Positions 5,375-30,003 are shown, numbered from the stretch's first letter. The stretch is 64,000 nucleotides of DNA from a virus (IMGVR_UViG_3300032092_000011:1-64000); one strand, 5' to 3'. Notes: generated by a model from the sequence alone, not told the origin. A program made the numbers and translations.

Positions 5375-5632
5375 TTAGTCTCCAGCCATTTTGACTAGTG
5401 ATTTTAACTTTAATAGAGTATCGCACTTCTCGTACTCTTCCTTCTTTTCGAAGTATTCAATTAATAAATCTATAAATTTAGATCGTTGACCTAAGCCATG
5501 TGGGATTTCAATAAGATCCTTACCTTCTTGAAACACAACGAAGCGATTTACAGTTTTTGTAAAGTTGCGGGTCAAAGTGTAGTAACTTGACCTCATAATA
5601 TCATCCTTTTCTCGATTTGAAATTTGACTCAT
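5375..5632 (-). CDS. UVR (UvrB/UvrC)-like motif protein (start MSQISNR)
   Basis: C-terminal LLIEYFEKKEEYEKCDTLLKLK. Confidence 0.7.
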   Translation of the reverse strand: MSQISNREKDDIMRSSYYTLTRNFTKTVNRFVVFQEGKDLIEIPHGLGQRSKFIDLLIEYFEKKEEYEKCDTLLKLKSLVKMAGD

Positions 5633-5705
5633 GTACTCAGTGATAACCATTCTTATGGTATATATTAACCGGAATATCGGCAATACGGTGAGATACTATA
5701 GTATT

Positions 5706-5903
5706 TTATGATTCTTTTTCTGAGTCAGTTTTTAACTTTTGAATATAAGTTGCCTTTCTAACCTCATCTCTTCTAGTAACAGATGGTTTGACAAATTCTT
5801 TACGATCTCGTAATTGATTAATTTGTTTTGTTTTAACAACTTTGGTTTTATACTTTTTTAAAGCCTGTTCGATATTTCCGTTTTTAACTTCAACTATAAT
5901 CAT
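5706..5903 (-). CDS. rpsU: 30S ribosomal protein bS21
   Basis: MIIVEVKNGNIEQALKKYKTK...LRDRKEFVKPSVTRR...KATYIQ, Bacteroidota-type bS21. Confidence 0.92.
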   Translation of the reverse strand: MIIVEVKNGNIEQALKKYKTKVVKTKQINQLRDRKEFVKPSVTRRDEVRKATYIQKLKTDSEKES

Positions 5904-6154
5904 TTTATCTCTTGTATTATTTTTTTAAGTTCATTACATTTTTCATATTCTTCTCTAGCCTCAAACCAGCTAATAATAAATGTAATTGCCTCTAGTTTTT
6001 CTTCTTTGGATGATGTACTATTTAATGCATCTTGTTTTCTATTTATTATAGCTTTATAAACAAGATCCATCATCTTCTCTCTGGGTAGATTTCTTACCGA
6101 ATTAAAAAATCTAAGAGAATCCTCGTCCATTGAAAATTCAGCATCTTCTATCAT
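5900..6154 (-). CDS. UVR-like motif protein
   Basis: C-terminal IISWFEAREEYEKCNELKKII. Confidence 0.7.
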   Translation of the reverse strand: MIEDAEFSMDEDSLRFFNSVRNLPREKMMDLVYKAIINRKQDALNSTSSKEEKLEAITFIISWFEAREEYEKCNELKKIIQEIK

Positions 6155-6957
6155 TCTAATTCTTTAATTTTTCTTATTATTTCCATTTGTTCATCCGTTA
6201 TCGATGAAAAATCACCATGGACCTTAACAAATAAATTACCAAAGGTATTTTCTCGGTATATTGGCATTCCCTTTCCAGGAATTCTCAATACTCTACCGCT
6301 AGTGGTCTTAGGTGGTATATTTATTTTATATTTTCCAAATGGAGTTTCAATATTGACATCGATACCTAATATTAAATCATAGAAAGGTAAATAGTGATCA
6401 ATCCACATGTCAGACCCTTGAACTACAATTCTTTCGTCCGGATTAATCAATATGTTAATAATTAGATCGCCTCTAGGCGCAGCTGTATTATATGGGTTGT
6501 AAGATCCTCTGCCATATACCTTTAAAACCATTCCGTTCTGCAAACCTCTAGCAAAATCAACTTTGACTTTATCAAAATTTAAATCAAAGTTCTTAGAACA
6601 ACCGTAATATGCTTCTTCTAATGTGAATGTTGCGTTAATTCTAACATTGGAGCCTGCTGCGTTTTGTTTATAATTTCGGTCAAAACTGTCACCCCAATTT
6701 CCATTCCATTGGCTGAATAAATCATTTAGATTAAAGCTATTAAATCCACTAAATTTTCTAGTAGAATCATACACGCTTCTTTTGTCAACGTTACCTAACG
6801 TCTCGTACGCTTCTTGTACTTTTTGAAATTTATCTTTAGCAGATGAGTCATTTGGATTTCTATCAGGGTGCAAATCTTTTGCCAATCGCCGATAAGCAGC
6901 CTTAATTTCTTCCGGTGTCGCCGTTTCTTGAACCCCTAAGGTTTGATAATAACTCAT
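6151..6957 (-). CDS. dnaJ: DnaJ/CbpA-type co-chaperone (J domain and C-terminal domain, no Zn finger)
   Basis: YYQTLGV...IKAAYRRLAKDLHPDRN; LRIPGKGMP C-terminal motif. Confidence 0.92.
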   Translation of the reverse strand: MSYYQTLGVQETATPEEIKAAYRRLAKDLHPDRNPNDSSAKDKFQKVQEAYETLGNVDKRSVYDSTRKFSGFNSFNLNDLFSQWNGNWGDSFDRNYKQNAAGSNVRINATFTLEEAYYGCSKNFDLNFDKVKVDFARGLQNGMVLKVYGRGSYNPYNTAAPRGDLIINILINPDERIVVQGSDMWIDHYLPFYDLILGIDVNIETPFGKYKINIPPKTTSGRVLRIPGKGMPIYRENTFGNLFVKVHGDFSSITDEQMEIIRKIKELE

Positions 6958-7090
6958 TCTTTTCTGCTTTTAACGCTTCTTTGCGCTGTTCAACGATAGA
7001 TTTCTTTTGTTCACGCTCCATTGCATCAGCAACTCTTTTTACCTGAGCCGTTAATGCTGTTAAAGCTGAAATAAGTTCTTTATCTGTCAT
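6902..7090 (-). CDS. small coiled-coil hypothetical protein
   Basis: 62 aa ORF whose 3' end overlaps the dnaJ start. Confidence 0.5.
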   Translation of the reverse strand: MTDKELISALTALTAQVKRVADAMEREQKKSIVEQRKEALKAEKNELLSNLRGSRNGDTGRN

Positions 7091-7124
7091 AGTTTTAAAA
7101 TTAATTATACAATATGTATCATAA

Positions 7125-7149
7125 TAAAAAAGGAGGCTTATGCCTCCTT
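7125..7149 (-). terminator. intrinsic terminator
   Basis: AAGGAGGC-TTAT-GCCTCCTT stem with an A-run (T-run on minus strand). Confidence 0.7.
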
Positions 7150-7437
7150 AAGATCAGTCAGATATTTTTGTAATATCGTACATTTTTCGTATTCCTCAGT
7201 TTCGACGAACCAACTTAACATGAACTCTAAAGTGTCGATTAGTTGAGTATTATTGAGGTTGATTAGCTTCATTCTCTCAATGTCAATACCATTTACTTCG
7301 ATATTTTTAAAGTTTGCTCGAACTAATTGATCGACTACGTCGTGATAAACACCTTTAATTTCGTTTGATTTCATAATTTGTTCTAGTTCATCATGTTCTT
7401 CCGTGAACTCGTTTTCTAAATCTTCGTTGTTAAACAT
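7138..7437 (-). CDS. UVR-like motif protein
   Basis: C-terminal MLSWFVETEEYEKCTILQKYL; preceded by an early-type promoter at ~7453-7495. Confidence 0.7.
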   Translation of the reverse strand: MFNNEDLENEFTEEHDELEQIMKSNEIKGVYHDVVDQLVRANFKNIEVNGIDIERMKLINLNNTQLIDTLEFMLSWFVETEEYEKCTILQKYLTDLKEA

Positions 7438-7495
7438 ATCTATTTGTTTTATGATATGTAAATATAAACAAAAAAATTCAAACGGAAAAACTTTT

Positions 7496-7870
7496 TTAAA
7501 AAATTTTTACTTTTTTAACTTCTGTCTTTTTAGAAAATGCAACACTCAATATTCCATTAGTATGTGACGCTTTTAAATTATCAACATCAACATCAGAACC
7601 TAGTGTAAATTTTCTAACAAATGATTTTTTAAACTTGTTAGAAGCTTTCTCATCGATTTCAGCAGAAATTACAAGATCCATACCTTCAACTTCAATACTC
7701 AATTCATCTGTTTCAAATCCAGGTACTGCTAAATGAAGGGTGTTGTTTTCAACATAATAATCTTTGAATTGATCTGTTGAAATCCAGGTTGTTTTCCAGA
7801 TTGGTTCGCTAATGTTGTCGAACATTTTTTCTACTACTTTGTCAAATGAAGTTCCTCTTGTTGTAAACAT
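7496..7870 (-). CDS. small heat-shock protein Hsp20/alpha-crystallin
   Basis: LAVPGF..DELSIEVEG..L.ISAE...SFVRKFTL...ASHTNGILSV. Confidence 0.9.
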   Translation of the reverse strand: MFTTRGTSFDKVVEKMFDNISEPIWKTTWISTDQFKDYYVENNTLHLAVPGFETDELSIEVEGMDLVISAEIDEKASNKFKKSFVRKFTLGSDVDVDNLKASHTNGILSVAFSKKTEVKKVKIF

Positions 7871-7894
7871 AATTTATTATATTTTTGGTTTCTG

Positions 7895-7960
7895 GCTTAT
7901 GCCATTACTAATATATGTACAAAAAGTATGCCAATTTGATTTTTATGCCAAATTGTCATA
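7895..7960 (-). promoter_or_regulatory. sigma54-like promoter with TG(A/G)CA repeats upstream of hsp20
   Basis: Minus strand TATGACAATTTGGCATAAAAATCAAATTGGCATACTTTTTGTA (GG-N10-GT spacing). Confidence 0.45.
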
Positions 7961-7963
7961 TTT

Positions 7964-8698
7964 TTAAAAATCTGAGTTTCTAATTGGTGACATATTGGCA
8001 AATCTTAAAACTAGACTTCCGGCTGCCTCAATATCCTCTTCGCAATAATTTTTAATATCTTCAATTCTACCAGCCCAATATGCCGCACCGACTTCTCCAG
8101 CCGACATTTCATCTTTTGGATTTTTAATACCTAAAAGAAGACAAATATGAGCAAGAGCTGCGCTACTCCAGCCACCGGCTTTCCATACCTCGTATGTATC
8201 AATTAAACAGTTTTCCCATGGTTTCATTTTATGTAAATGAAGTTGTTTAGGTAGATCTAGCCCATGAACAATACTTTTTTTGATGATATATGGAATATCA
8301 AATCCTTTAATATTATGTCCAACTAATTTGATTCCAGGCGCCTTAAAAAATACAATCTTCATGAATTCAATAAATTCTGAAAGTAGATCCTTCTCATCGG
8401 TACCATAAAATGATTTCTTTTGCATGAATGGATTTCCTTCTTCATCGAATTTAACTTGACCAACTGAGATACACACAATTCTACCCCATTCAGCAGAAAG
8501 AGATGCTTTTTGATAATAAATCTCATCATCAGATAGATTCTTTAATTCAACGTCCTCATCTCTGATAAATTTAGCCTTTCTTTCCCAAAAACTTTTGAGA
8601 GATGGAATATTGGTAATAGCTTCTTGATATGTTTCAAACCCAGAGGTCGTCTCAATATCAATAAAAAGCATTCCTTTAATTTCTTCTTGATTATACAT
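7964..8698 (-). CDS. PolB-related 3'-5' exonuclease (DEDD)
   Basis: FIDIET, GRIVCIS, LVGHNIKGFDIPY, IDT, YCEED motifs. Confidence 0.88.
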   Translation of the reverse strand: MYNQEEIKGMLFIDIETTSGFETYQEAITNIPSLKSFWERKAKFIRDEDVELKNLSDDEIYYQKASLSAEWGRIVCISVGQVKFDEEGNPFMQKKSFYGTDEKDLLSEFIEFMKIVFFKAPGIKLVGHNIKGFDIPYIIKKSIVHGLDLPKQLHLHKMKPWENCLIDTYEVWKAGGWSSAALAHICLLLGIKNPKDEMSAGEVGAAYWAGRIEDIKNYCEEDIEAAGSLVLRFANMSPIRNSDF

Positions 8699-8979
8699 TA
8701 TTCATATTTAGTTTTAGTAATACTGTCTACCTCTTTAATTATATCAAATATAGAACATGAGTAAATCCAATAAGGTCGACCCATTCGCTTAGTATCGTTG
8801 TCGCTTGCTGGTACATGGAATGAGTACCACTTAACACCATATGTTTTTGTTAAATTTTCATTAACACCAACACATTCGCCTTGATATGTTGTCATTTTAG
8901 CCCAAACAAATTCATAGAACTTGCCTTCTTTGGGATTCTTAACGTTAACGATTTGGATTTCTTTAGGTTTCTTTGCCAT
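8698..8979 (-). CDS. hypothetical protein
   Basis: ORF behind an early-type promoter at ~8994-9032. Confidence 0.7.
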   Translation of the reverse strand: MAKKPKEIQIVNVKNPKEGKFYEFVWAKMTTYQGECVGVNENLTKTYGVKWYSFHVPASDNDTKRMGRPYWIYSCSIFDIIKEVDSITKTKYE

Positions 8980-9074
8980 AATTTCTAATTGTTTATGTAA
9001 ATATAAACAAAAAAATCGACACGGTAAAATTTTTGTGAAAGATTTTAAGATTATATGAGTAATCTTAAGAAAGT

Positions 9075-9314
9075 TTAATCCAACTGCTCAAATGGATCTG
9101 ACCAGGTTCTAGACTGACGAACCTTAACATATTGGTCGTATGTTAAATGAATTGCTATATAACCTCCTGAAATAGAATATGGAGCATCGGTCTCTGAAAA
9201 CCAATATTGAGGTGGAATTTCTACCCTATCATTTAAAAAATCAAAAAGCTCGTCGACGAGCATATGGTGTACATATATGGTTAAAACCATGCATTTGTTA
9301 TTAGGGTACCCCAT
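9075..9314 (-). CDS. hypothetical protein
   Basis: Probable start MGYPNN, coupled (TAATG) to the upstream gene. Confidence 0.6.
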   Translation of the reverse strand: MGYPNNKCMVLTIYVHHMLVDELFDFLNDRVEIPPQYWFSETDAPYSISGGYIAIHLTYDQYVKVRQSRTWSDPFEQLD

Positions 9315-10258
9315 TATTTCTCTACTTTCCAAGCTGGATTCTGTTTTGTATTCTGTGCTGTATCTTCCTCTTTAAATTTCTTTAAAAGATCTACAGTATC
9401 TTGAGACAATTCGGTTTCATAATAATCCTCATAGATCTTTTGATATAAAATAGACATGATACCAAATAATGCACCTGGTTCCGAGTTCATTTCAAAAACA
9501 TAAACTTTACCATCCTTAGTTTCAGCTAAATCAATTGCATAAAAGTCTAAATCTGAATGGGCATCTGAAAAATATCTTAAAACCTTTAAATGTTCTGGTT
9601 TAATGTTCTTAATATCTTTACAGATATATGAAAAATTAGTTTCTTTTTCTGGATCTTTTTTAGAAATATCAGCAGTTTCATCATCTAACGGAACTCTTTG
9701 AGCCCATTGGATCAACTCTCCTCTCCATAACCAGTATCTATGTTCTTCTGTAATATCTATTTTTTCAGAAAATGAAGTGAATTTGCTTAAATCAGCAGAA
9801 TCAAAATCTTCTTCATCTTTAAAAACAACGATTCCTAATCCGCTATGCTCATTATCAGGCTTAGCAACAATAGGAAAATTAAGATCCTTTACTTCGCTTG
9901 GATCTGTAACGCTAGGTATAATATAGTTACTATCCTGATGCATTTCATAGAATGCTGACTTTGATGATATATTTTTTCTAGCCTCGATCTTATTATAAAT
10001 CTGATCGGGACGAATAGCTCCTTTTTCTAAAAGTTGCTCTAAAGTACCACGATCATAATTAAGTACAGGAAGTCCTTTTGGAACATCAACAACATCTATA
10101 TCTCTAGTTAAAATACACCAATATTCAGGAGTATGATATTCATCACCAGTTATAAAAGAATCTTCTAAATCTTTTCTTCTAGTAATGCATACCTTTTTAA
10201 ACTCATCTTTTACAATGGCTTCAGATACAAATTGTTCAAATGTTAATAGTGACTTCAT
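9314..10258 (-). CDS. ATP-grasp (RimK-like) ligase with N-terminal capsid-targeting-like tag
   Basis: FPIVAKPDNEHSGLGIVVF, FYAIDL...VYVFEMNSEPG; N-terminus MKSLLTFEQFVSEA. Confidence 0.75.
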   Translation of the reverse strand: MKSLLTFEQFVSEAIVKDEFKKVCITRRKDLEDSFITGDEYHTPEYWCILTRDIDVVDVPKGLPVLNYDRGTLEQLLEKGAIRPDQIYNKIEARKNISSKSAFYEMHQDSNYIIPSVTDPSEVKDLNFPIVAKPDNEHSGLGIVVFKDEEDFDSADLSKFTSFSEKIDITEEHRYWLWRGELIQWAQRVPLDDETADISKKDPEKETNFSYICKDIKNIKPEHLKVLRYFSDAHSDLDFYAIDLAETKDGKVYVFEMNSEPGALFGIMSILYQKIYEDYYETELSQDTVDLLKKFKEEDTAQNTKQNPAWKVEK

Positions 10259-10268
10259 GTACTATATA

Positions 10269-10868
10269 TTATTTGTAATGTTCTCCGCCTACCCAAAGAA
10301 CGAAAGATCTTCTAGTTCCTTTAGTAACGGGAGTAACTCGATGCATCATATATGATGGAAAAACTACAACATTACCACGTCCTCTTGGGGCTTGTCGAAT
10401 CCAATCTCCACCTCCCCAAATTTCTAAATCGCCGCCCTCGTATTCGCCGCCATCCGAAAGCTGAACTGTTATAGAAACTTTTCTTTTAGATGCCATTCCA
10501 GTTCCTAAATCTTGATGCCATGTATAATGTCCACCTGCAACATCGTAATATTCTGTATATTGAATTGCTTCTGGTGCTGCAATTAAATCAAATCCCCAGG
10601 TATGGTCATTAGCCTCAATTGCCATGGCCATTAATTTATCATAAAGCCATCCCCATTCTTGTGTTTGAGGAATCCATTTAATGCTAGAACTACGTACCTT
10701 TTTATCGACATTAGTTGATTCTCCTCCGATAATTGTAGCTTGCTCAAATGGAATTAAATCCACGTCATTATAAATTTTAGTTAATTCTTGTTCGGTAAAT
10801 CCCTTATCGAACCAGTAATAATTCTGAGGATCATTCTCAGGTTTTGTAAAGATGTTTTGAAAGTTCAT
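10269..10868 (-). CDS. 2OG-Fe(II) oxygenase, PKHD/prolyl-hydroxylase type
   Basis: YTWHQD, RKVSITVQLS, YEGGDL, VVVFPSYMMHRVTPVTKGTRRSFVLW. Confidence 0.92.
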   Translation of the reverse strand: MNFQNIFTKPENDPQNYYWFDKGFTEQELTKIYNDVDLIPFEQATIIGGESTNVDKKVRSSSIKWIPQTQEWGWLYDKLMAMAIEANDHTWGFDLIAAPEAIQYTEYYDVAGGHYTWHQDLGTGMASKRKVSITVQLSDGGEYEGGDLEIWGGGDWIRQAPRGRGNVVVFPSYMMHRVTPVTKGTRRSFVLWVGGEHYK

Positions 10869-10871
10869 ATA

Positions 10872-11534
10872 TTATTTATTTTTGTTAATTAGGGTTTGAA
10901 TCTCTTGATCCCAGAACGTATGTTCTTGTTGCATGTGAGAATCCTCAAATTCTTTACTGGTTACTGAAACTTCACCTGGTGTTTTAAGTCCTTGGATCCA
11001 ATATATTTTTCGTTTCATGAGGTCTTTGTTATAGAAATATAGATAATCATCTCCAAAAAATATCTTAAAACAATGTGGTATTTTTATATAATTCTCTTTT
11101 TTAAGAATCATCATACAACCAAAACCATATCCTCTATCATTTATTTCAGTCAATTCTATAAAATCATTGAACGTATTAATTTCAGAATTTAAAAGATTAT
11201 CTTTGTAGAGACCAATCATTCCAAAATTAGAATCTTTTTGGATCAACGTGTTGAACTTTCTTACCAAAAAATCAATGTTAATCGATATATCATCATTAAG
11301 TAGGCAAACGTATTTGTTCTGTGCAAGTGTTACGCCTATTGACCAAGAAGGATTGACAAATATGTTTGATTTTGGTTTAATAACTGTAACTCTATAATCC
11401 TTGCTTGCATATCCTTTCTGCGCATTGTCGATAATAATAAGCTCAGCATCCATGTTTTTGCAACTTTCAAAACTTTCAATAGTTTTGAAAATACGGTCGG
11501 ATTTCCATAGAGTCGGTATTATGAATGTAATCAT
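10872..11534 (-). CDS. glycosyltransferase family 2
   Basis: ITFIIPT, LIIIDN, CLLNDD, FFGDD. Confidence 0.85.
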   Translation of the reverse strand: MITFIIPTLWKSDRIFKTIESFESCKNMDAELIIIDNAQKGYASKDYRVTVIKPKSNIFVNPSWSIGVTLAQNKYVCLLNDDISINIDFLVRKFNTLIQKDSNFGMIGLYKDNLLNSEINTFNDFIELTEINDRGYGFGCMMILKKENYIKIPHCFKIFFGDDYLYFYNKDLMKRKIYWIQGLKTPGEVSVTSKEFEDSHMQQEHTFWDQEIQTLINKNK

Positions 11535-13342
11535 ATTTTGTATATTTCATTGACATAGCATTCTTCTTTGCCAAATTTACTAGGAGTATTAAGTGGATTA
11601 TTTGGATTTTCTTCATATGCCCAATCTTTATAGCCTAATTCCTCAAATCTATTTTTAATCTGCTCATTATAATGCCATGCAATAGAACGAACTCTTCTTT
11701 GAATATCCTTTCTAGCCAAATCATGTGAATTCATAACATTGCCATTGTTGTAGATAAATTGCAAGTAACCGAGTCTAGGTATTCTAACCATTTTCGTTTT
11801 TAAGAATGTTCTTACAATTAGTTCATAATCATCTGCAATTGCAAGATCTCTACAATGTCCACCAATTTCAAAATACGTTTCTCGCCTCCATGCTCTAACA
11901 TGATTTGGTACTCCAACGATATGCCTGATTGTTTTTGGATTTATATTTGAAGAGACAGCAACTTTAAATGTTTTATCTAGAACAGTTTCTTTAACATATC
12001 TTCCATATCCTAGTGCGAATCCATCTGGATATGTTAGTGAATTCCAATTTTGATCTATTTCTGCTGAATCTGTATAAAAGAATCCGGCATCTTTATGTGC
12101 TTGTGAAGCATTAAATAAATCTTCAGTGCATGTAGGTACTAAATAATCGTCATGGTCCAATTCTGCTAAAATATAACCTCGACATAAAGTCGCAGCTCTC
12201 CATTTTACTTCACCGATATTACCACCACTTTTCGGATTAATATCAAATACTCTAACTCTTGGATCTTTTGATGCGATTGCATTTGCTATTTTAAGAGTAG
12301 CTCCACCATCACTAGAATCATTAACAACCACCCACTCCCAATCAATATATGTTTGCGACCTTAGTGAATTATATGTCATTAAAAGTTTTTCACCAGTGTT
12401 ATATGCTGGAGTAAAATATGAAATCAATTTAGAATTATCAAAACTCATCATCGTTGTCATTGCACAATTATATGCTTTTTCACCGGTCAATGGATCATTA
12501 GGTTCTACATTAATCCACATTTTTCTAAATTCATGTGGCGCATTCCAAAGAGTTTTTAAATCTTCTGGATTTTCATATGCGCTAACAATAGCAATTGGTT
12601 TTACTCTAGCTAAATCTTCAAAAATATTTGAATCATCTTTGATATATTCAACATCTAAATCTTGAGATTCATAACTTGCATAGTAAGATGATTTTAAATC
12701 AGGTGTTCCTTCTCCAATATAAAGAATTTTAGGAACTTTGGCACTAGGTGCTTTTTGTAGATAATTGTAATGTGCTAAAATTTCATCAATAAAAAGAAAT
12801 GAATTTGGATTGGATTCATATACCTTTTCAATAAATCTACCATCAGCATCATAACCACCTTCAAATTCTATTCGATCAAATACTCTTCTGTTTAAAACAA
12901 ATTGAGCTAAATCAATATGTCTAACTTTCATATTTTCTGGCTTTGCGTACCTAACATCTACGCCAGTAAAATCTTTTCCAGCAACATGTTGATTAAATAC
13001 AATTCCATCTACAGAATTGTCAATCGATTCTTTTATTTTATCATAGAAATTTTCATGTAAAATATTATCATCATCTAGAGAATAGATCCAACCCGATTTA
13101 ATGGTATCTTTTATAATTCTACTCATTTGTGGATATAAATAGTCTCCACCTTGAGAGTATTCAAAATGAACTCTTGGGCTATATTCTTGTAGTTGAGTTA
13201 ATAATTCAACATCAATATCTTTTAATCGAGTCGAATCAAATATAATGTGCCAAACAACATCACTTGCTTTAGGAATTGAATTAGCAACTTTTAGTAGGTT
13301 TTGAGGTCTACTACACCTTGTTAAAATATGTATTGTATTCAT
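11531..13342 (-). CDS. two-domain glycosyltransferase family 2
   Basis: N-terminal YSLDDDN GT-A domain; C-terminal FTPAYN, WVVVNDS, AELDHDD, ADDYEL. Confidence 0.88.
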   Translation of the reverse strand: MNTIHILTRCSRPQNLLKVANSIPKASDVVWHIIFDSTRLKDIDVELLTQLQEYSPRVHFEYSQGGDYLYPQMSRIIKDTIKSGWIYSLDDDNILHENFYDKIKESIDNSVDGIVFNQHVAGKDFTGVDVRYAKPENMKVRHIDLAQFVLNRRVFDRIEFEGGYDADGRFIEKVYESNPNSFLFIDEILAHYNYLQKAPSAKVPKILYIGEGTPDLKSSYYASYESQDLDVEYIKDDSNIFEDLARVKPIAIVSAYENPEDLKTLWNAPHEFRKMWINVEPNDPLTGEKAYNCAMTTMMSFDNSKLISYFTPAYNTGEKLLMTYNSLRSQTYIDWEWVVVNDSSDGGATLKIANAIASKDPRVRVFDINPKSGGNIGEVKWRAATLCRGYILAELDHDDYLVPTCTEDLFNASQAHKDAGFFYTDSAEIDQNWNSLTYPDGFALGYGRYVKETVLDKTFKVAVSSNINPKTIRHIVGVPNHVRAWRRETYFEIGGHCRDLAIADDYELIVRTFLKTKMVRIPRLGYLQFIYNNGNVMNSHDLARKDIQRRVRSIAWHYNEQIKNRFEELGYKDWAYEENPNNPLNTPSKFGKEECYVNEIYKI

Positions 13343-13347
13343 GTTTA

Positions 13348-14274: not shown

Positions 14275-14302
14275 AATTTTAGTTTATAGGTTTAATATTA
14301 AG

Positions 14303-15334: not shown

Positions 15335-15368
15335 ATTATTATAATAATATACTACATTCTATATATAC

Positions 15369-15394
15369 AAAAAAGCCGGAATGAATCCGGCTTT
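15369..15394 (-). terminator. intrinsic terminator
   Basis: AAAGCCGGA-ATGAA-TCCGGCTTT stem. Confidence 0.7.
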
Positions 15395-15398
15395 AAAA

Positions 15399-17266: not shown

Positions 17267-17267
17267 A

Positions 17268-20200
17268 TTACTTATTTTCTAATTGTTTTACTCTTTCTGA
17301 AAGTTGTTTAATTGCTTCAATAAGAACACCAACTAAATCATTGTAACTTACAGTTTTATATCCATCTAATCCATCAACTACATTGTCTGGTAAAACTTTT
17401 TCAACTTCTTGAGCAATTAAACCAGTTCTCTGTCTATCTAGATCAGAATTTAAATTATATCTAACACCTCTTAAAGATTCTACAATCTCTAAAGCATTAT
17501 CTATTGTTTCAATATTTGTTTTTAACTTTTCGTCAGAACTAATAGTAACATCAGAAAAAGTTGGTGAAGAGTTAGTGTTTACATACTGGTTTAACGAATT
17601 TGCATAACCATTATTTGTAATATAACTTGTCCAGTTTGCATTTGTTAGAATAGTTCTGTATGATTGGTATGCACCATTAGTGACTCTACGTACCCAGAAA
17701 TTATCAGAGTGGAAGTCGTGTACAAGTTGGAATCCATAGTTAGCAGACCATGAGTTACCCATTGAGTTAATCCATTGATTCCAATCTCCAGATGGTGTTC
17801 CATTTGGACTAGATGCAAAGAAGAATCCGGATGCTCTATTAAATCCATTTAAGTCTCCGTCATTAGTACTCTTTTTGTCACCATCACCATATACAATTCG
17901 ACTAATGCCTACACCACTTATAGAGCTTGCATCATATGATGCTGGGCCTGTTGGACCTGTAGGACCTGTAGGACCTGTAGGACCAGGACCTCCAGCTGAA
18001 CCATCTCTACCAGTTGCACCTTGGGGACCAGTCGGACCAGTCGGACCAGTTGCTCCAGTTCCACCAGTTCCACCAGTCGGACCTGTTGGTCCAGTTGCGC
18101 CTTGGGGACCAGTCGGACCAGGACCTCCATTAGAACCATTAGTTCCATTAGGACCTGTTGGACCTTGTCTACCCTGTGCTCCAGTCGGACCAGTTGCTCC
18201 AGTTCCACCAGTTCCACCAGTCGGACCTGTTGGTCCAGTTGCTCCTTGAGGACCAGTTGAACCAGTAGGACCAGTCGGTCCAGTCGGACCGGCTACCGTA
18301 GATGCCGCTCCAGTTGCTCCAGTAGGGCCTGTAGGACCTTGAATACCTTGTGGTCCTGGACTTCCATTAGAACCATTTGTTCCAGCGGCTCCTTGAGCAC
18401 CGTTTGCTCCGGCTAGTCCATCAATACCAGATGGTCCTTGTCTACCTTGTGGACCAGTTGCTCCAGTAGGGCCAGTAGGGCCAGTTGCGCCCTGTACACC
18501 AGTCGATCCAGTTCCACCAGTTGCTCCAGTTGCACCCTGCGGCCCAGTCGGACCAGGACCTCCATTAGAACCATTAGTTCCATTTGGACCAGTAGGACCT
18601 TGTCTACCCTGTGCTCCAGTCGAACCAGTTGCTCCTTGAGCTCCAGTTCCACCAGTTCCACCAGTCGGACCAGTTGCTCCTTGAGGACCAGTCGCTCCTT
18701 GAGCTCCAGTTCCACCAGTTCCACCAGTCGGACCAGTTGCTCCTTGAGGACCAGTTGCTCCAGTTCCACCAGTCGGACCAGTTGCTCCTTGAGGACCAGT
18801 TGAACCAGTAGGACCAGTAGGTCCAGTAGGTCCAATTGCCCATGAATGAGAACTAGAACTTGTGTAATAAACACCACCATTAGGAATAGTAACCATGCCA
18901 GGCATCCATTTTAATGCGCCTGTGTCGCCATTATGAGTTGCAATTAATACCCATCCATCACCAACCTGAACCGAACCATCATTATACGCATGAACTGCTA
19001 ATCTTCCAGAATCATACGGATGGCTCATTCCTCGCCCAATTTTATACCAAACACCATTCCATGCTGGTACACTTAAGTTAGATACCGGACCGATATCTAA
19101 ATATCCAGAAGATCCTAAACTATTATCAACTGGTATAATAATTACTCTTTGATCCCATGTTAGTCTAGCAGAAGACCAAGTTACATTACCTCCTCCACTT
19201 ATAGCATAGTTTGCATTCGCAGTTTCATATTCAGTAGGACCCGTTGGTCCAGTTGCTCCTGTATTTCCTTGAGGACCTGTTGAACCTGTCGAACCAGTAG
19301 AACCTTGAGGTCCAGTTGCTCCTGTATTTCCAGTAATACCAGTTGGACCTTGATTTCCTTGTGCTCCAGTATTTCCAGTAATACCAGTTGGACCTTGATT
19401 TCCTTGAGGTCCTGTATTTCCTTGTGGACCAGTTGGACCCTGTCTACCTTGAAAACCTTGAGGTCCAGTAATACCAGTTGGACCTTGATTTCCTTGTGCT
19501 CCTGTATTTCCAGTAATACCAGTTGGACCTTGATTACCTTGAGGACCAGTTGCTCCTGTATTTCCAGTAATACCAGTCGGACCTTGATTACCTTGTGCTC
19601 CAGTATTTCCTTGAGGACCAGTTGGACCTTGATTTCCTTGAGCTCCTGTATTTCCAGTAATACCAGTTGGACCTTGATTTCCTTGTGCTCCAGTATTTCC
19701 TTGAGGACCGGTTGGACCCTGTCTACCTTGTGTTCCTTGAGCTCCAGTATTTCCTTGAGCTCCAGTATTTCCTTGAGGACCTGTCGGTCCTTGTACACCT
19801 GCTGCACCAACAACAGACATATCAGTTATATATGTCCATGTACCATTCCATAAATAAAGTGCTCCATAATCTGGATCAGTTTGCGGCAATGTTCCAGCAA
19901 CTAAACCAAATTCTCCAACTGGAGCAACATCACCTAATAACTGTGCAGTACTATCATATATTCTATAAATTCTAAATCCTTGTCCAGTAGTTCCCTGGGA
20001 TCCAGTTGGTCCCTGTCTACCTTGAAAACCTTGAGCTCCAACAGTTCCTTGTACTCCTGTTGGACCTTGATTACCTTGAGCTCCAGTTGAACCTTGCAAT
20101 CCAGTAGGACCTTGGTTTCCTTGAGCTCCAATAGTTCCTTGTACTCCTGTTGGACCTTGATTACCTTGAGCTCCAGTTGAACCTTGTAATCCAGTAGGAC

Positions 20201-20663: not shown

Positions 20664-20725
20664 GGTTTTCTGAATTATTTTTAAATCTCAATCTATATAT
20701 TAGACTTAATTAGTAAGCGTCTAAC

Positions 20726-21895: not shown

Positions 21896-21927
21896 AACTA
21901 TTCTTTATTTAGATATTTATTGACATT

Positions 21928-21955
21928 AAAAAAGGGAGCTTTTCAGCTCCCTTTT
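21928..21955 (-). terminator. intrinsic terminator
   Basis: AAAAGGGAGCT-TTTC-AGCTCCCTTTT. Confidence 0.8.
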
Positions 21956-21976
21956 ATTATTAAAATATTAGTACTA

Positions 21977-23347: not shown

Positions 23348-23442
23348 GTCTAATTGTTATTTTTCGGCCTTAGAAGTTTATTCCTCTAATGGTTTATATA
23401 TTTAGTCGCATCTTCCGAAATAACAATAACCTTATAATAATT

Positions 23443-24873
23443 TTAGCGGTGGATTTGATAATTGAAGTCGATTCGATCTGAATCTTCTAAGAAATAACCA
23501 GAAACTTCTGCATTCCAATACAATTGATCGCCTTGATCCAAGTCAACGTATGATTTTGCTGTGGTTCCGCCATCTCCTGAGAAATAGCATGCATATCCAT
23601 TTTTAGTTCCATTTCCAACATCATTAATAACTCCATTTACGTTAACTTCGATATATGTTGTTGGCGCAGGATCTAGTGCTAAACCTAACCCAGTACCTTG
23701 AATAGTTGAACTTAAAATTACTAAATTTGGAATTAAGTTTCTTTCAGTATATGGCACTACATTTGGTGCTAAATTACTTTCAACTGGAATTTCAGCTGCT
23801 AAACTTGCTAATGTTGTAATACTAGCCGTTAAACTATTAATTTGAGAAATTAAATTAGATTCGATTGTTGAAACTCTTGTGTCAACAGAAGTTTTACTTG
23901 CTAATGTGATAGCTAAATTTTCTAATGAATCAACCGAATTTTCAACAGTATCTATTTCATTACCAGTCGTTGTTAAATCAGATCTTAATTCAGAAATATC
24001 TGTTACTAAATCGCCAACTTCAGTGTAAGCTTCTAATTGATACGATATTCTTTGACCAACTTCCCATTCTAAATCTTCAATAATATTGCTAGATGAAACA
24101 GATTCAAAATCTAATGTTAATTTAATAGCATCTGCAAAATCGGTAGATGAATTATTTGAATTTAGGTTAATTCTTTCCCATGAAATAATATCATATATTG
24201 CATATTGCGTTGGTGAAAGGGTGTTAATTATTGTGATTGTTGCTTTTTGACCAGGGCTTGAAAATCTCTGCATTAAAAAATTTTCAAGAGAAGACAATCT
24301 AATATTATTTTCGTTTAAATTATTAAAAATAATACTAGTTGTCAATTCTGGATTTGTGCTATTAACTGATGCCTTTCCAAAAGAAGTTGGATTAGATCCA
24401 CTTACTGATATAATATTAAAAGTAGAAACTAGAATATCTCCGGCAACTGAAGTCTGTAAAGCTGGAACTCCTGTTGCTACAACTTCAGCAATTTTAAATT
24501 GTGCAAACTCGTATCTTTTAGTTGCAGGAAAGTAATTTCTAGTATCGGTGAATATAACTTCAGCATATAGATCTCCTAAATCTAAATTACTAGAATAAAA
24601 TTGAGAAATTGTAAATGTTGCCTCTCCTTTAGATTCATCAAATTGCGAAATTGTAATAGGTTCAGCATATTCATTTGGATAATTGTATACAAGTAATCTT
24701 TTGCCAGCCGAATTGAATAAAGAAACTTTTAAAGTTCCGGTTCTTCTAATATCTAATTGTTTACCAATAAAGTCCTTGTATAAAGTGAGCTTAATATTGG
24801 TAGAAAGGCCTTGACCAACCGTTACTACATTTTCTAAATATATTAAAATGTCATCTTTAGCAATATAAGCCAT
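23443..24873 (-). CDS. putative virion structural protein
   Basis: 476 aa; shares NSVDSLE.LA.TLA.KTSVDTRVST segment with the neighbouring gene. Confidence 0.65.
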   Translation of the reverse strand: MAYIAKDDILIYLENVVTVGQGLSTNIKLTLYKDFIGKQLDIRRTGTLKVSLFNSAGKRLLVYNYPNEYAEPITISQFDESKGEATFTISQFYSSNLDLGDLYAEVIFTDTRNYFPATKRYEFAQFKIAEVVATGVPALQTSVAGDILVSTFNIISVSGSNPTSFGKASVNSTNPELTTSIIFNNLNENNIRLSSLENFLMQRFSSPGQKATITIINTLSPTQYAIYDIISWERINLNSNNSSTDFADAIKLTLDFESVSSSNIIEDLEWEVGQRISYQLEAYTEVGDLVTDISELRSDLTTTGNEIDTVENSVDSLENLAITLASKTSVDTRVSTIESNLISQINSLTASITTLASLAAEIPVESNLAPNVVPYTERNLIPNLVILSSTIQGTGLGLALDPAPTTYIEVNVNGVINDVGNGTKNGYACYFSGDGGTTAKSYVDLDQGDQLYWNAEVSGYFLEDSDRIDFNYQIHR

Positions 24874-24924
24874 TTTAGGATTTTATGTTTATTCAATCTA
24901 TATATTTATATTAGACATAGGTGA

Positions 24925-25605
24925 TTATCCTCCGGTTTGAAGATAATTGAATATTTTATAAGACAATATTGGAATAATCGCATCTTCAATAGGAAGATCC
25001 TTTTTAATGTCCGCCCTAATTATCATGATTTTTGGATCTTCCTTAAATTTATTTACAAAATCCGATATTTTTTCTAGACTAAATTCTTCTGGCCCAAAAT
25101 TAAACTCGATTTTAAACTTCTTAGGATCTTGCTTTAAGATAGGTTTATTAAAACTATAAAAATATTGAGACAATGAAGTACATACAATAACATATCCAGA
25201 ACTATAAACTAATTTTTTATTAGGAATTTGGGTTATTGCCATGCATTTTTCTAGTTCTCTCCATTTACCCCTAACATCCTTATATATTTTTTCAAGGAAA
25301 ATTGTTGCATCTTCTGCAATCTTTTTTAAAACCTCTAATTCTTCATTATGCTCATTTTCGTAAGCAATTGACATAGTGTCTAGATCAATTCCTTTAATCT
25401 TTTGTAATTTAGATGAGTTTTCATCAATCGTATATTTAAACTTATATAGGCTTTCTAGATGTGATTCAATTTCACTTAATACAGGATATACTCTGTTCTC
25501 ACGAACCATCGACTGATATTTCATACCAGCCGATAGTAACTTATACTTTTTAAATTCGTAATCTATTGGACCTGAAAAGATCCAATCTTTCTGCAGAATT
25601 TCCAT
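24925..25605 (-). CDS. hypothetical protein (resembles a conserved Bacteroidota protein, DW..G.IDYEFKKY.LL)
   Basis: N-terminal motif recalled from memory; function unknown. Confidence 0.65.
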   Translation of the reverse strand: MEILQKDWIFSGPIDYEFKKYKLLSAGMKYQSMVRENRVYPVLSEIESHLESLYKFKYTIDENSSKLQKIKGIDLDTMSIAYENEHNEELEVLKKIAEDATIFLEKIYKDVRGKWRELEKCMAITQIPNKKLVYSSGYVIVCTSLSQYFYSFNKPILKQDPKKFKIEFNFGPEEFSLEKISDFVNKFKEDPKIMIIRADIKKDLPIEDAIIPILSYKIFNYLQTGG

Positions 25606-25624
25606 GTGTTATTTATCATGGAAA

Positions 25625-25930
25625 TTAGTTTTTACGGCGGATTTCTACTTTTTCAGTTTCTTTTTGGACAATTTGATGACCTACTGTGGTTAAACCCCAT
25701 TGTAAAATAAACCAACTTGCTTCCATTTCCGACAACTTATCAGATAGACCGAGTTCAGATTTTATTTTCTTTGCACAATAATCCATAAAAATCTTTTGTT
25801 CTTCTTCGGTTGTTTTATAGTTCATGTACCAATTAGGTTCATTTACTACATCATCATATGTTTTCCCGAATGGTTCTAATTGTTTATTAATTAATTCAAC
25901 AAACAATTTCTTTTGGATGTCTCTGCTCAT
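25625..25930 (-). CDS. hypothetical protein
   Basis: ORF in operon downstream of clpP. Confidence 0.7.
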   Translation of the reverse strand: MSRDIQKKLFVELINKQLEPFGKTYDDVVNEPNWYMNYKTTEEEQKIFMDYCAKKIKSELGLSDKLSEMEASWFILQWGLTTVGHQIVQKETEKVEIRRKN

Positions 25931-26133
25931 AGTTCAATAAGTTCATTTAAAAGTCCTCGATCGATTAAGGCAATATATTCATTTGCAGAAATAGAAACTT
26001 GAATCCATCCTTTTGCCGGAACATTTTGATATAGAATAGAATCTTCGTCATCTTGTTCAAGAGACCAAATAATATTAAGTATTCTTTTGAAGTACTCAAC
26101 TCTGCTGGATTCAATGTAAAAGTGGACGTTCAT
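25927..26133 (-). CDS. hypothetical protein
   Basis: ORF with 4-nt overlap to next gene. Confidence 0.65.
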   Translation of the reverse strand: MNVHFYIESSRVEYFKRILNIIWSLEQDDEDSILYQNVPAKGWIQVSISANEYIALIDRGLLNELIEL

Positions 26134-26140
26134 GTTTTAT

Positions 26141-26818
26141 TTATTTTCTTTTAATAATACTATCAATAATTCCATAATCTAAGGCCTGCTGTGAATTTAA
26201 CCAAAAATCTCTAGTAGCATCTGCTTTGACAACTTCAGCATCTTTACCACAATATTCTCCAAGAAGTTGGAATAGAATATCGTTTACCTTTTGCCATTCT
26301 TTCCAATCAATTTCAGCATCTTGAATATTTCCACTAAAACCGCCCGATGATTGATGTAACATTGTTGTTGAGAATCTTAGTGAAGATCTTTTACCCTTTG
26401 TACCGGCTCCTAATAAAACCGAACCCATTGAAGCAGCCATACCGGTGTTTACTGTTCTAATATCACTTTTAATATAATCCATTACATCCACCATTGAAAG
26501 GCCTGATTTAACAGATCCGCCTGGAGAATCAATATGCATTGTAATGTCTTCATTGCCGATAGAATCAAGAAACATTAATTGGGCTTGGACAACAGTAGAC
26601 ATGTTGTCATTTACTTCACCAGCAACCCATAATAAGCGGTCCATCATTAATCTTGAAAAAATGTCCATTTGAACTGCTCTTAATTCTCTTTCTTCTAAAA
26701 TATAAGGCGTTAATGACCCATTTATCTGTTTTTGATAATAGTCTAAAGTTAATGAAGATACATTATGCTCAGATTTTGCATAGCGGTTGAATTCCGTTGA
26801 TTTGTTTAAGTAGTTCAT
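26141..26818 (-). CDS. clpP: ATP-dependent Clp protease proteolytic subunit
   Basis: MDIFSRLMMDR, IDSPGGSV, GMAASMG (catalytic Ser), MLHQ, RDFWL. Confidence 0.96.
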   Translation of the reverse strand: MNYLNKSTEFNRYAKSEHNVSSLTLDYYQKQINGSLTPYILEERELRAVQMDIFSRLMMDRLLWVAGEVNDNMSTVVQAQLMFLDSIGNEDITMHIDSPGGSVKSGLSMVDVMDYIKSDIRTVNTGMAASMGSVLLGAGTKGKRSSLRFSTTMLHQSSGGFSGNIQDAEIDWKEWQKVNDILFQLLGEYCGKDAEVVKADATRDFWLNSQQALDYGIIDSIIKRK

Positions 26819-27123
26819 ATTTTATTAATTAAATCTTGAATGACTTGGCAAGTTTCATAATCTTCTATTTTTAGAAAATACTCGTTTGCCTTTGTTAATG
26901 ATTTTTTCCAACTTGATTTATCTAAACTTACATTATATTTAGATCCGTATTCATCTATAAACTGACACAGCATATTATGCTTAATTATTCCATTTACAGA
27001 TCCTGAGATGTGCCGAATTATTTGCCTATTAAAAATGTCTTCAGATTCTCCGTCTACGTATTTTTCCATGCGAGGACTTCCTTGAAACGAAGTTAAAGTT
27101 ATTTTAATAATCGGTACTTGCAT
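26815..27123 (-). CDS. UVR-like motif protein coupled to clpP
   Basis: C-terminal ANEYFLKIEDYETCQVIQDLI; 4-nt overlap with clpP start. Confidence 0.7.
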   Translation of the reverse strand: MQVPIIKITLTSFQGSPRMEKYVDGESEDIFNRQIIRHISGSVNGIIKHNMLCQFIDEYGSKYNVSLDKSSWKKSLTKANEYFLKIEDYETCQVIQDLINKI

Positions 27124-27962
27124 TATTTTATATTTAGGAAATCTTTTAGAATTGCTAGATATCCGGCTTGTTTAGTTTCTTCTGAAATATTATCTATTGT
27201 ATCAATAAATTTTTGGCCAGATTCTGTATATTTTAAACCACCATTAACAGTAAATAATGGTTCAATAAGATTCATAGTATATTGTTTATCGGTCGGTCCA
27301 TTATCAAGAATTTGACTAGCTAATTCAAAGTGTCTTTCATAATAATGAATATTGTCAGCAAAATGTGAATATGTACCAAGTTCTAGAGATGGGTAAGTTT
27401 CTTTTAACCATAACAGCATATGTTGATGCACGAATGCAAAAAACGGAGCATCGAAAGTTAAACCATAGAAAATATCATTTGATCTCATTTGGACTTTCAT
27501 GTAAAGCTTGTTATCACGGATAAAGAAATTTAAATACATTGTACATACAAAATCTTTATTACCCTTAAATTGAAATTTTGGTTGATTTAAGAATGCGATC
27601 GCTTGTCTAGTGTTTTGGTCTTCTTTTAAAGAGTTTAAACACCATTCCAACTGATCACCAAATAATAAATTACCATAATTTGAATTTATCTGATTAGTCC
27701 CAGGATTTGTGATACCTTTCCAAAAACCAGAAAAACGATTAATATAGTCAATATCAGTATCTTGTTTTAAATACCATGCTAATTCGCCAGCAAAGTATTT
27801 CCAATTAAATGATCGATCCTTAAAAGATGCAATTGGAGAAATTGAATCAATTGCAATTTGGCCGTAAATTAATTCACGAACCTTTAAACTTCTAGGTTGT
27901 GATTCTGAACCAAGCGTATCGATATTCTTAATTGTTTGTATAAATTGATTAGAAAAACTCAT
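27123..27962 (-). CDS. thymidylate synthase superfamily, T4 gp42-like dCMP hydroxymethylase (start MSFSNQF)
   Basis: INSNYG, NTRQAI, KDFVCT, MRSNDIFYGLTFD, HYYERH; Asp at the ThyA Asn177 specificity position. Confidence 0.8.
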   Translation of the reverse strand: MSFSNQFIQTIKNIDTLGSESQPRSLKVRELIYGQIAIDSISPIASFKDRSFNWKYFAGELAWYLKQDTDIDYINRFSGFWKGITNPGTNQINSNYGNLLFGDQLEWCLNSLKEDQNTRQAIAFLNQPKFQFKGNKDFVCTMYLNFFIRDNKLYMKVQMRSNDIFYGLTFDAPFFAFVHQHMLLWLKETYPSLELGTYSHFADNIHYYERHFELASQILDNGPTDKQYTMNLIEPLFTVNGGLKYTESGQKFIDTIDNISEETKQAGYLAILKDFLNIK

Positions 27963-27987
27963 TAATATATTTTTTAGTATTATACAC

Positions 27988-30003
27988 TTATTTAAAAGAA
28001 AGTTTATCAGCATCTTTTTCATGCGTGATTGTGTAGTACACTTCATTAGAAGGTTCAATTGACTTTTCAATAATTGCATCAGCCAATAAATCTTCAACAT
28101 GAGATTGAATTGCTCGTTTTAAAGGTCTTGCACCGTATGCTGGATCGTATCCTTCTTTAACTAAAAACTGTTTAGCAGATTTTGTAAATCTAAGAGAAAT
28201 ATTCTGCTCTTCTAATCTTTCAATCACATCAGCCAATTCAATTTCAACAATCTTAAAAATACTCTCTTCTGATAATTGTTCAAATAGAATCATGTCATCT
28301 AATCGGTTTAAGAATTCTGGTGGAAATTTATTCTTTAATTCTTTTCTAATAATAGATTCCATTTTAGCTTTATACGTAGCATCGCTCATATCGGTTTGGA
28401 ATCCGATACCAACTCCAAATTCTGAGAATTTACGGGCACCAACATTAGAAGTCATGATGATAATAGTGTTTGTAAAATCAATAGTTCTACCTAAAGAATC
28501 TGTTAAACGACCATCATCTAAAACCTGCAATAATGTATTGAAAATATCTGGATGTGCTTTTTCTATCTCATCAAATAGAATTACTGAATATGGTTTACGC
28601 CTAACGGCCTCGGTCAATTGACCGCCTTCTTCGTAACCAACATATCCTGGAGGAGAACCAATAAGTCTAGACACTGTGAATTTTTCTTGGTATTCACTCA
28701 TGTCAATTCTAACAAGGTTGTCTTCAGACCCAAAATAATATTCTGTTAAAGCTTTTACAGTTTCAGTTTTACCAACACCAGTTGGTCCAATAAACATAAA
28801 TGAACCGATTGGCTTTTTAGCCGAGCTAACACCGGTTCTAGAACGTTTAATAACTTTACATAAAGATTCTACAGCTTGATCCTGTCCAATAATAAGTTTC
28901 TTCAACTCTTTTGACATATTTAGAATCATTTTACTTTCATCACCGCTTAATCTTGCTACTGGAATTCCAGTTATTTCAGCAATTGTATGCGCAACGTCGT
29001 CTTCAGTAACAAGTCTCTTTTTATCACGAAGGCTTTTTTCCCAATCCTTAATCTTTTGCTCGATTTCTTTACGTTTAGCAATTTCTAAATCTCTAAATTG
29101 TGCTGCTCCTTCGTAATCTTGTTTGGCAACTGAAGAATGTTTTTGTTTTCCGAATTCATCAGCATCCTCTTCCATCTTTTTAATATAAGATGGAACTTTG
29201 ATTTCTGATAAATGGATTTTTGAACCAACTTCATCCATAACATCAATTGCCTTATCAGGTAATTCACGCTGAGTAATATAACGCTCTGAAAGTCTAACAC
29301 ATGCATCAATTGCTTCTGGACTATATGTTACAGCATGATGATCTTCATACTTCTCTTTGATTCTATTAAGAATTTCGATAGCTTCGTCTAAACTAGGTGG
29401 GTCAATAAAAACCTCTTGAAATCTTCTAGTTAGAGCACCATCTTCTTCAATATGTTCTCGATATTCGTCAGTTGTTGTTGCACCAATACAATGAACTTGT
29501 CCTCTTGCCAATGCTGGTTTTAAAATATTTGAAGCATCTAAAGAACCAGAAGAACCACCAGCGCCAATTAAAGTGTGGATCTCATCAATAAAAACAATAA
29601 TATCTTGATTTTCTTTAAGTTCATCAACAATAACTTTCATACGCTCTTCAAATTCACCACGGTATTTAGTACCGGCAACGATTGTAGTTAAGTTTAATGA
29701 AATTATGCGTTTATTAAAAAGTGTACGAGCCACTTTCTTTTCAACTATACGCTGTGCAATAGCCTCAACAATTGCGGTTTTACCAACTCCTGGATCTCCT
29801 AAGATGATTGGATTGTTTTTCTTTCTACGAGAAAGAATTTGGCAAACTCGATAAACTTCTTTTTCACGACCAATGATCGGATCAAGTTTACCTTCGGCTG
29901 CCATTTGTGTTAGATCTTCACCGAACTGGTCAATGAATGGAGTTTTACCCTTTGGTTGTTTTTTGGGGTTAGTATTTAAATTTTCATCAATATGATCCAT
30001 CAT
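27988..30003 (-). CDS. clpC: ClpC-type AAA+ unfoldase lacking the N-terminal repeat domain
   Basis: Two AAA modules (GDPGVGKT, GPTGVGKT), UVR M-domain QDYEGAAQFRD, IGF ClpP-docking loop. Confidence 0.9.
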   Translation of the reverse strand: MMDHIDENLNTNPKKQPKGKTPFIDQFGEDLTQMAAEGKLDPIIGREKEVYRVCQILSRRKKNNPIILGDPGVGKTAIVEAIAQRIVEKKVARTLFNKRIISLNLTTIVAGTKYRGEFEERMKVIVDELKENQDIIVFIDEIHTLIGAGGSSGSLDASNILKPALARGQVHCIGATTTDEYREHIEEDGALTRRFQEVFIDPPSLDEAIEILNRIKEKYEDHHAVTYSPEAIDACVRLSERYITQRELPDKAIDVMDEVGSKIHLSEIKVPSYIKKMEEDADEFGKQKHSSVAKQDYEGAAQFRDLEIAKRKEIEQKIKDWEKSLRDKKRLVTEDDVAHTIAEITGIPVARLSGDESKMILNMSKELKKLIIGQDQAVESLCKVIKRSRTGVSSAKKPIGSFMFIGPTGVGKTETVKALTEYYFGSEDNLVRIDMSEYQEKFTVSRLIGSPPGYVGYEEGGQLTEAVRRKPYSVILFDEIEKAHPDIFNTLLQVLDDGRLTDSLGRTIDFTNTIIIMTSNVGARKFSEFGVGIGFQTDMSDATYKAKMESIIRKELKNKFPPEFLNRLDDMILFEQLSEESIFKIVEIELADVIERLEEQNISLRFTKSAKQFLVKEGYDPAYGARPLKRAIQSHVEDLLADAIIEKSIEPSNEVYYTITHEKDADKLSFK

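Follow-up and report, generated by a model that had tools for sequence, protein, structure and literature searches.

Systems close to the proteins considered here include the bacterial ClpC-ClpP protease with its adaptor MecA, and an engineered ClpC deprived of its N-domain (Jenne et al. 2025, PMC12583610). In Staphylococcus aureus, deletion of the ClpC N-domain (ΔN) raises ATPase activity and gives no proteolysis unless F436A, a substitution that abolishes the M-domain-to-M-domain resting state, is added as well; the double mutant is fully active on ssrA-tagged GFP (PMC12583610). The tip of the ClpC M-domain carries a UVR motif (PF02151), which also occurs at the C-terminus of UvrB and in UvrC, McsA and the plant proteins CLPF, EXE and UVR2-4. 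UVR hairpins pair with one another, as in UvrB-UvrC and between ClpC M-domains. To our knowledge, all known ClpC adaptors and activating antibiotics act through the N-domain, and the retention of a naturally N-less ClpC together with ClpP in many jumbo phages raises the questions of how such an enzyme is switched on and how it is aimed. Here we describe a clpC gene of this kind, its clpP partner and four small open reading frames (ORFs) with a shared C-terminal hairpin in a 64,000-nucleotide stretch of viral DNA (IMGVR_UViG_3300032092_000011, positions 1-64000; hereafter the window). The hairpin protein coupled to clpP is a concrete candidate for a part in these events, with a Tyr in the position of F436, the resting-state contact.

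Two further systems offer analogies. Phage SPO1 Gp53 is an adaptor-like protein of Bacillus subtilis ClpC that binds mainly the N-domain and competes with MecA (PMC6873191). The hairpin proteins resemble Gp53 as small phage proteins for which an action on ClpC is proposed, but the domain that Gp53 targets is absent from the phage ClpC described here, and no sequence relation between them is seen. In the clpS-clpA operon an adaptor gene lies directly upstream of that of its Clp partner. The clpP-coupled hairpin protein is likewise a protein of ~100 residues encoded beside, and co-translated with, a Clp component, although it has no ClpS (PF02617) hit and its neighbour is clpP rather than the unfoldase gene.

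Our reading, to which we assign a probability of about 45%, is that the four ORFs are paralogues within a huge phage-restricted family of helical proteins, of which only the copy starting at 26815 is tied to the protease, with a hairpin tip predicted to cap the ClpC M-domain. What can be said most safely is that these genes belong to a large phage-only family, so far undescribed, whose small helical proteins carry a UVR-like docking hairpin with a Cys.

The clpC-clpP operon and its hairpin gene

The clpC gene (27988-30003, minus strand) encodes a ClpC-type double-ring AAA+ unfoldase of 671 residues without an N-domain. The product aligns with residues 157-792 of B. subtilis ClpC (E 1e-221); because the alignment starts only at residue 157 and the M-domain is ungapped, the N-domain is absent and the M-domain is of normal length. 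Pfam matches are to AAA, AAA_lid_9, AAA_2 and ClpB_D2-small, and Clp_N is not among the best 25 of the 55 Pfam hits; upstream extension of the ORF is impossible, and the preceding gene is RNaseH-like. The M-domain contains the sole PF02151 match on the contig (six-frame search, E<=10), KQDYEGAAQFRD at 29068-29148 (minus strand), which scores 22.2 bits against a gathering threshold of 21.5 bits, and the Tyr of this motif occupies the F436 position as counted on the B. subtilis alignment. With two AAA+ modules, a short UVR-bearing M-domain and an IGF loop (GIGF in the translation), the protein belongs to the ClpC class, and the first-pass annotation of this DNA, which had described an N-less phage ClpC with these features, was correct on this point.

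The clpP gene (26141-26818, minus strand) encodes a peptidase of 225 residues matching PF00574 at 186.6 bits, and its translation includes the Ser, His and Asp motifs (GMAASMG, LHQ and TRDFW), so that both the hidden Markov model (HMM) match and the catalytic triad identify it as a ClpP serine peptidase; on NCBIfam PRK14514 it scores 233 bits, below the 361-bit cut-off. The phage proteins are thus like bacterial ClpC-ClpP in having two AAA+ rings, an IGF loop, an M-domain of equal length with an aromatic tip, and an intact ClpP triad. In contrast to bacterial ClpC, the phage enzyme naturally lacks the N-domain, which binds MecA, McsB and phospho-arginine and stabilises the resting state, and neither a MecA nor a ClpS homologue was seen.

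The closest cellular ClpCs are those of Bacteroidota (54-61% identity), which are 841-849 residues long and start with normal Clp_N sequence, and since these nearest relatives are full-length the phage clpC is a truncated derivative of the host-phylum type. The same proximity is the main evidence that the phage host is probably in the Bacteroidota. All 23 distinct phage ClpC homologues (~640-700 residues) lack the N-domain; in the stretch scanned, 21 of the 23 have Q[DL]YE.AA and 21 have an IGF or VGF loop. As this natural ΔN form keeps the tip Tyr, the phage ClpC should still be repressible through its M-domains, and as S. aureus ΔN alone is proteolytically inactive, the phage enzyme would need either a weaker resting state or an activator directed at the M-domain.

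Between clpC and clpP lie two genes, the first encoding a divergent member of the thymidylate synthase family (TS-like; 27123-27962, minus strand; 279 residues from an ATG at 27962) and the second a hairpin protein of 102 residues with the motif YFLKIEDYETC (26815-27123, minus strand). The overlapping stop and start codons, read directly, give the chain TS-like-TAATG-hairpin-ATGA-clpP, and the reported translational coupling of the 26815 gene to clpP is therefore present in the DNA. The TS-like protein falls far under the NCBIfam thyA cut-offs, and a homologue in locus L227 (3622-4518) scores 67 bits on PF00303.

A reverse survey, in which 80 IMG/VR loci were collected starting from ClpP, found ClpC, the TS-like gene and a hairpin gene together in 34. 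In five more, ClpC directly precedes ClpP without the TS-like and hairpin genes; ClpC is absent within 8 kb from the others, with no hairpin gene in 38 and a hairpin gene elsewhere in the locus in three. The hairpin gene of the 34 loci always lies between -53 and +12 nt from the TS-like stop codon. These loci encode 18 distinct hairpin proteins, and the basis for a link to clpP is that the operon position has been kept while the hairpin proteins drifted to 28-57% identity with that of the window (ClpP is 72-86% identical). All five complete jumbo genomes with ClpP encode an N-less ClpC, and four have hairpin matches. The 26815 orthologue is a candidate regulator in a clpC(ΔN)/TS-like/clpP operon, although a role for it alongside the TS-like gene is as likely.

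The composition of this operon varies in other ways. In one lineage (L264:5954-7978) a glycosyltransferase-25 (GT25) gene follows the hairpin gene, and this and the TS-like gene inside the operon may form a nucleotide or DNA hypermodification cassette. In L226 (genome G008; 3443-3814) clpC and clpP are separated by a gene with a methylglyoxal synthase-like (MGS-like) domain, which stands where the TS-like gene and the hairpin gene would be. In the megaphage LR745206, no ClpP or hairpin ORF lies within 20 kb of its ClpC.

A phage-restricted family of hairpin proteins

The C-terminal motif [WY]F-x3-E[ED]YE-x-C is present in exactly four ORFs, all on the minus strand, in both the window and the whole contig (109,841 bases, a virus record with a CheckV completeness of 42%), and in a six-frame scan of both the pattern E[ED][YFW]E.[CAS] was restricted to the same four ORFs, 16-21 residues before the stop. 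At the DNA level, the pattern GARGANTAYGARNNNTGY is observed four times against 0.02 expected, and none of 100 shuffles reached four; this and the conservation of the motif exclude chance or a non-coding artefact. All four of the proteins first noted for their common ending were thus found where they had been placed. Besides the clpP-coupled gene, they are an ORF just upstream of phoH (5375-5683, minus strand; YFEKKEEYEKC), an 84-residue protein (5900-6154, minus strand; WFEAREEYEKC) and a 99-residue protein encoded between hsp20 and dnaJ (7138-7437, minus strand; WFVETEEYEKC). The 5375 ORF extends to as many as 102 residues from a TTG, although an ATG at 5650 or 5632 is the likelier start; its homologues in L002, L003 and L109 are 85-97 residues long, and 39 N-terminal homologues are present in the family. 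The 5900 gene overlaps both dnaJ, on its upstream side, and rpsU, on its downstream side, through an ATGA read directly from the sequence (dnaJ-ATGA-hairpin-ATGA-rpsU), and homologues of the 7138 protein occupy the equivalent place in L002-L004.

The N-termini of these proteins had been described as unrelated, which holds for only one of the four. With the hairpin module removed, the 5375 and 5900 families match each other with an HH probability of 92% through a helix motif, D-x-x-l-M-r-x-s-Y-x-x-i-x-x-N, in helix 1; the match of the 7138 family is weak (19%), and for the 26815 family there is none. Since the N-terminal helices match, the three copies around dnaJ are full-length paralogues rather than unrelated N-terminal parts that share a tail. 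The 146 ORFs compared across IMG/VR fall into ~20 N-terminal clusters, and the largest, a 140-residue form accounting for 82 of the 146, has no member in the window.

A 39-position profile of the hairpin module, searched against 1.84 billion representative proteins, retrieved, with E<=1e-3, 627 clusters (50% identity), of which the best 150 are without exception small proteins (43-292 residues, mostly 60-140) in which the module is always C-terminal. Its consensus is [IL]-[DN]-x-[ML]-I-x-[YW]-F-E-x-x-E-E-Y-E-K-C-x-x-L-x-K-[LI]-K. The Cys is invariant: in ~1.1 Mb of related phage DNA the motif's upstream part was seen 152 times and ran on into Cys each time, a count that includes ~30 paralogues picked without regard to Cys. 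An exact-pattern scan of IMG/VR found at least 120 loci (GC content 26-40%) with 147 hairpin ORFs, 20 of the loci having two to four copies. Only one of 301 Bacteroidota genomes has a match, and in these sequence surveys the family is phage-restricted. Pfam, PHROG and NCBIfam offered no usable name for the four window proteins; Pfam gave chance hits only on 72 family members (e.g. DHR-2_Lobe_A at E 0.001), and no Pfam domain is present in the best 120 longer relatives examined for fused forms. Searches by tblastn with three window proteins and one other member gave no match in 50,697 GenBank phage records. Pfam, PHROGs and NCBIfam therefore offer neither a name nor a function for a phage-only set of more than 600 clusters in which the E-x-Y-E-x-C tip is invariant, and identification of the partner would annotate many genes of aquatic phages, probably of Bacteroidota.

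An AlphaFold2 model of the 26815 protein, built with 22 relatives, has a predicted local distance difference test (pLDDT) score of 82-96 across residues 24-102, and consists of a helix (26-43), a beta-hairpin (51-56 and 62-66), a second helix (69-85), a turn (I86-E87-D88) and a last helix (89-101) that starts Y-E-T-C, such that the motif YFLKIEDYETC spans the turn. The model of the 84-residue 5900 protein is an all-helical bundle ending in helix 50-66, the turn R-E-E (67-69) and helix 70-82. In both models Y-E-x-C opens the last helix straight after a three-residue turn, and because both end in helix, three-residue turn and helix, the motif is predicted to cap a helix-turn-helix hairpin in the fashion of UVR. 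In our reading, every member has a helix at the N-terminus, joined to the C-terminal hairpin by a connector that varies and may be a loop or a beta-hairpin; the tip of the hairpin bears the invariant E-x-Y-E-x-C, and the hairpin is most likely a protein-protein docking surface. Foldseek found no match in the PDB at E<=0.001, no ClpS-like chain appeared in the fold searches, and all hits in BFVD were uncharacterised phage proteins, with several common to both models.

Likeness to UVR and rival explanations

Like UVR, the module is predicted to form a helix-turn-helix of ~35 residues with an acidic turn followed by aromatic-E-x-small at the opening of helix 2 and L or I at +3, and some family members read YEKCSEIRDLI where UVR has FEKAAELRDEI. 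Unlike UVR, an invariant Cys stands in place of the first Ala (A-A becomes C-x), most members lack the second Ala, R-D is kept in a minority only, helix 1 has its own I-x-[YW]-F-E signature, and the family is confined to phages. In hhalign comparison with a reference set of 12 UVR domains from UvrB, UvrC and ClpC of five genomes, EeYEKC aligned on xxFExAA in the expected register, and the module Tyr aligns with ClpC F436. The likeness is weak, although its score of 13.4 was reached by none of the 200 column-shuffled controls (mean 6.4, maximum 13.0). With a home-made UVR HMM, 19 of 156 modules scored better than the 1% shuffle level (best 17.9 bits, median 2.2). In the ESM Atlas a viral cluster has UVR in 17% of its members with a score of 0.86, which we took as a lead only. 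Since the Pfam threshold is never reached and TPR scores are similar, we regard the module, from its sequence, as UVR-like and not UVR; of the earlier assignment to UVR, the predicted hairpin, the register and the Tyr at F436 stand, and the family identity does not.

A TPR repeat was also considered and rejected, as no TPR family is among the Pfam hits, there is only a single hairpin, the hhalign match to TPR_1 (11.1) is out of register, and the TPR chains in the fold searches (Z 5.5-7.5) are at noise. The known Clp adaptors MecA, ClpS, McsB and NblA were set aside on sequence, with no Pfam or NCBIfam hit for the four proteins; the fold searches, whose best matches are at noise level, listed none of them.

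From these features we infer how the clpP-coupled protein might act. The 26815 orthologous group alone is genomically tied to the protease, coupled within the order clpC (without N-domain)/TS-like/hairpin/clpP, and the tip of its hairpin may mimic that of the ClpC M-domain, its own Tyr standing for F436. By capping the M-domain of the phage's N-less ClpC, the protein would break the M-domain-to-M-domain resting state and switch the ClpC-ClpP machine on, and the remainder of the small protein possibly brings cargo. A small protein that is cotranslated with ClpP and has the same aromatic-acidic hairpin tip could plausibly release the resting state in this way. The copies near dnaJ, rpsU and phoH use the same hairpin, but their partner need not be ClpC. 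An extension in which the EEYEKC hairpin is generally a viral M-domain-tip mimic, capping phage and possibly host ClpC and reprogramming ClpCP in infection, seems to us improbable; if true, M-domain mimicry would represent a new class of M-domain-directed Clp activators or adaptors across hundreds of phage protein clusters.

Several observations weigh against the capping proposal. The hhalign score of the module with UVR (13.4) is near those of the module with TPR_1 and of UVR with TPR (12.8), and the Pfam UVR model is not matched by the four window proteins (E<=10) or by the 72 family members (E<=1). VIA-align searches in wide mode gave best Z scores of 6.6 and 7.5 for the two models, to designed bundles and TPR-like chains, which for helical proteins is noise level. 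Both models pack the hairpin onto the protein's own N-terminal helix, such that no free tail is predicted. This last point favours an account in which the hairpin is a structural and self-association core, the paralogues having diverse early-gene functions and no shared partner, and the nearness to Clp and DnaJ genes reflecting operon packing; the C-terminal hairpins of UvrB dimerise as a four-helix bundle, which is the analogy behind it. Diverse gene contexts, the lack of any known domain fused to the module in the best 120 longer relatives, and the occurrence of the family independently of phage ClpCP are consistent with such a core. We nevertheless think it unlikely, though the likeliest of the alternatives, as the invariance of the exposed-type residues E, E and K and of the Cys through 627 clusters and more than 150 sequences goes beyond the usual needs of packing, and the ATGA and TAATG couplings to dnaJ, rpsU and clpP are conserved.

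The distribution of the family bears on the first-pass annotation, which had proposed that all such proteins are modular adaptors, the UVR-like tail docking on the M-domain of phage or host ClpC and the N-terminus selecting the substrate that ClpCP would degrade. This model would suit a hairpin that stays constant while the parts before it vary (20 N-terminal clusters, 146 ORFs), as well as the several copies per phage, and the ClpC of the probable host phylum is full-length and has the tip Y/F-E-E-A-A. There are also precedents, which speak for the capping proposal too: in the plastid, trapped CLPC1 shows a strong enrichment of UVR-domain proteins (PMC8889267), and adaptor-like phage proteins of ClpC are known, such as SPO1 Gp53 (PMC6873191), which acts through the N-domain. 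However, three of the four proteins are paralogous over their whole length, the Pfam UVR model is not reached, and tblastn gave no match in GenBank phages, those of ClpC-bearing Firmicutes included. The neighbours of the four window genes by Pfam are indeed DnaJ, Hsp20 and ClpP, as had been noted, together with PhoH and bS21, and of 124 hairpin loci 21 include DnaJ in the stored stretch, a count that is the same for S21 and for PhoH, but confinement of the family to chaperone and protease neighbourhoods does not hold elsewhere: upstream neighbours include T5orf172 endonuclease-like genes (17/75) as well as DnaJ (13/75), and SNase, amidase, RNR, PhoH and crAss-type tail ring genes also adjoin. 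Nor is co-occurrence with phage ClpC obligate in either direction. Among 43 hairpin-bearing contigs of at least 20 kb, ClpP is present in four and ClpC in three, and three hairpin phages at least 90% complete (56-63 kb) have neither; conversely, a complete 310-kb genome with ClpC and ClpP has no hairpin match. The expected co-occurrence is thus seen for the 26815 orthologue in its 34 operons and fails in the near-complete phages, and the distribution does not support the whole family as a set of ClpC adaptors, a role that we judge improbable.

The gene order of the operon itself raises a further point against capping of ClpC, since the 26815 orthologue adjoins the TS-like gene in all 34 loci and clpP in only 18, a GT25 gene lying between the hairpin gene and clpP in the other 16, and the five clpC-clpP loci without the TS-like gene have no hairpin gene either. 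It could instead assist the TS-like enzyme, both belonging to a cassette for nucleotide or DNA modification that has entered the clpC-clpP operon, with no partner in ClpCP, and L152 has another hairpin ORF just upstream of a canonical thymidylate synthase. We place this lowest among the explanations, given that the 34 loci are from related phages and therefore represent few independent events, that a homologue in L005 has neither a TS-like gene nor clpP nearby, and that the hairpin is common to paralogues without a TS neighbour.

Neighbouring genes and composition

The window has a GC content of 0.36, and nearly all its genes are on the minus strand. Three of the hairpin genes lie in a cassette at 4671-7870 (minus strand) with the order, from Pfam matches, hsp20/hairpin/small ORF/dnaJ/hairpin/rpsU (bS21)/hairpin/phoH, which is repeated in L002. 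The small ORF of 62 residues (6902-7090, minus strand) overlaps the dnaJ start and has a counterpart in L002 (7162-7350), without a family match. The bS21 gene (5706-5903, minus strand) has its sole GenBank-phage DNA matches in LR756501 and LR756503, 735-kb uncultured phage records. Immediately upstream of clpC (30026-31149, minus strand) are the RNaseH-like gene (PF04308) and a LOG/TIGR00730-like gene, and this pair is repeated before clpC in the relatives L227, L264 and L290.

In L005, a 9-kb IMG/VR contig, genes for an RNase R-like protein, an S1-domain protein, a hairpin protein, SmpB and a sigma-70-like factor stand in a row (3441-8669) and may constitute a phage-borne trans-translation and RNA decay set. 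The composition of the window is mosaic, with GC-rich islands (0.42-0.49 against a baseline of 0.31) at 18000-20000, 32000-34000, 36000-38000, 42000-46000, 48000-50000 and 60000-62000.

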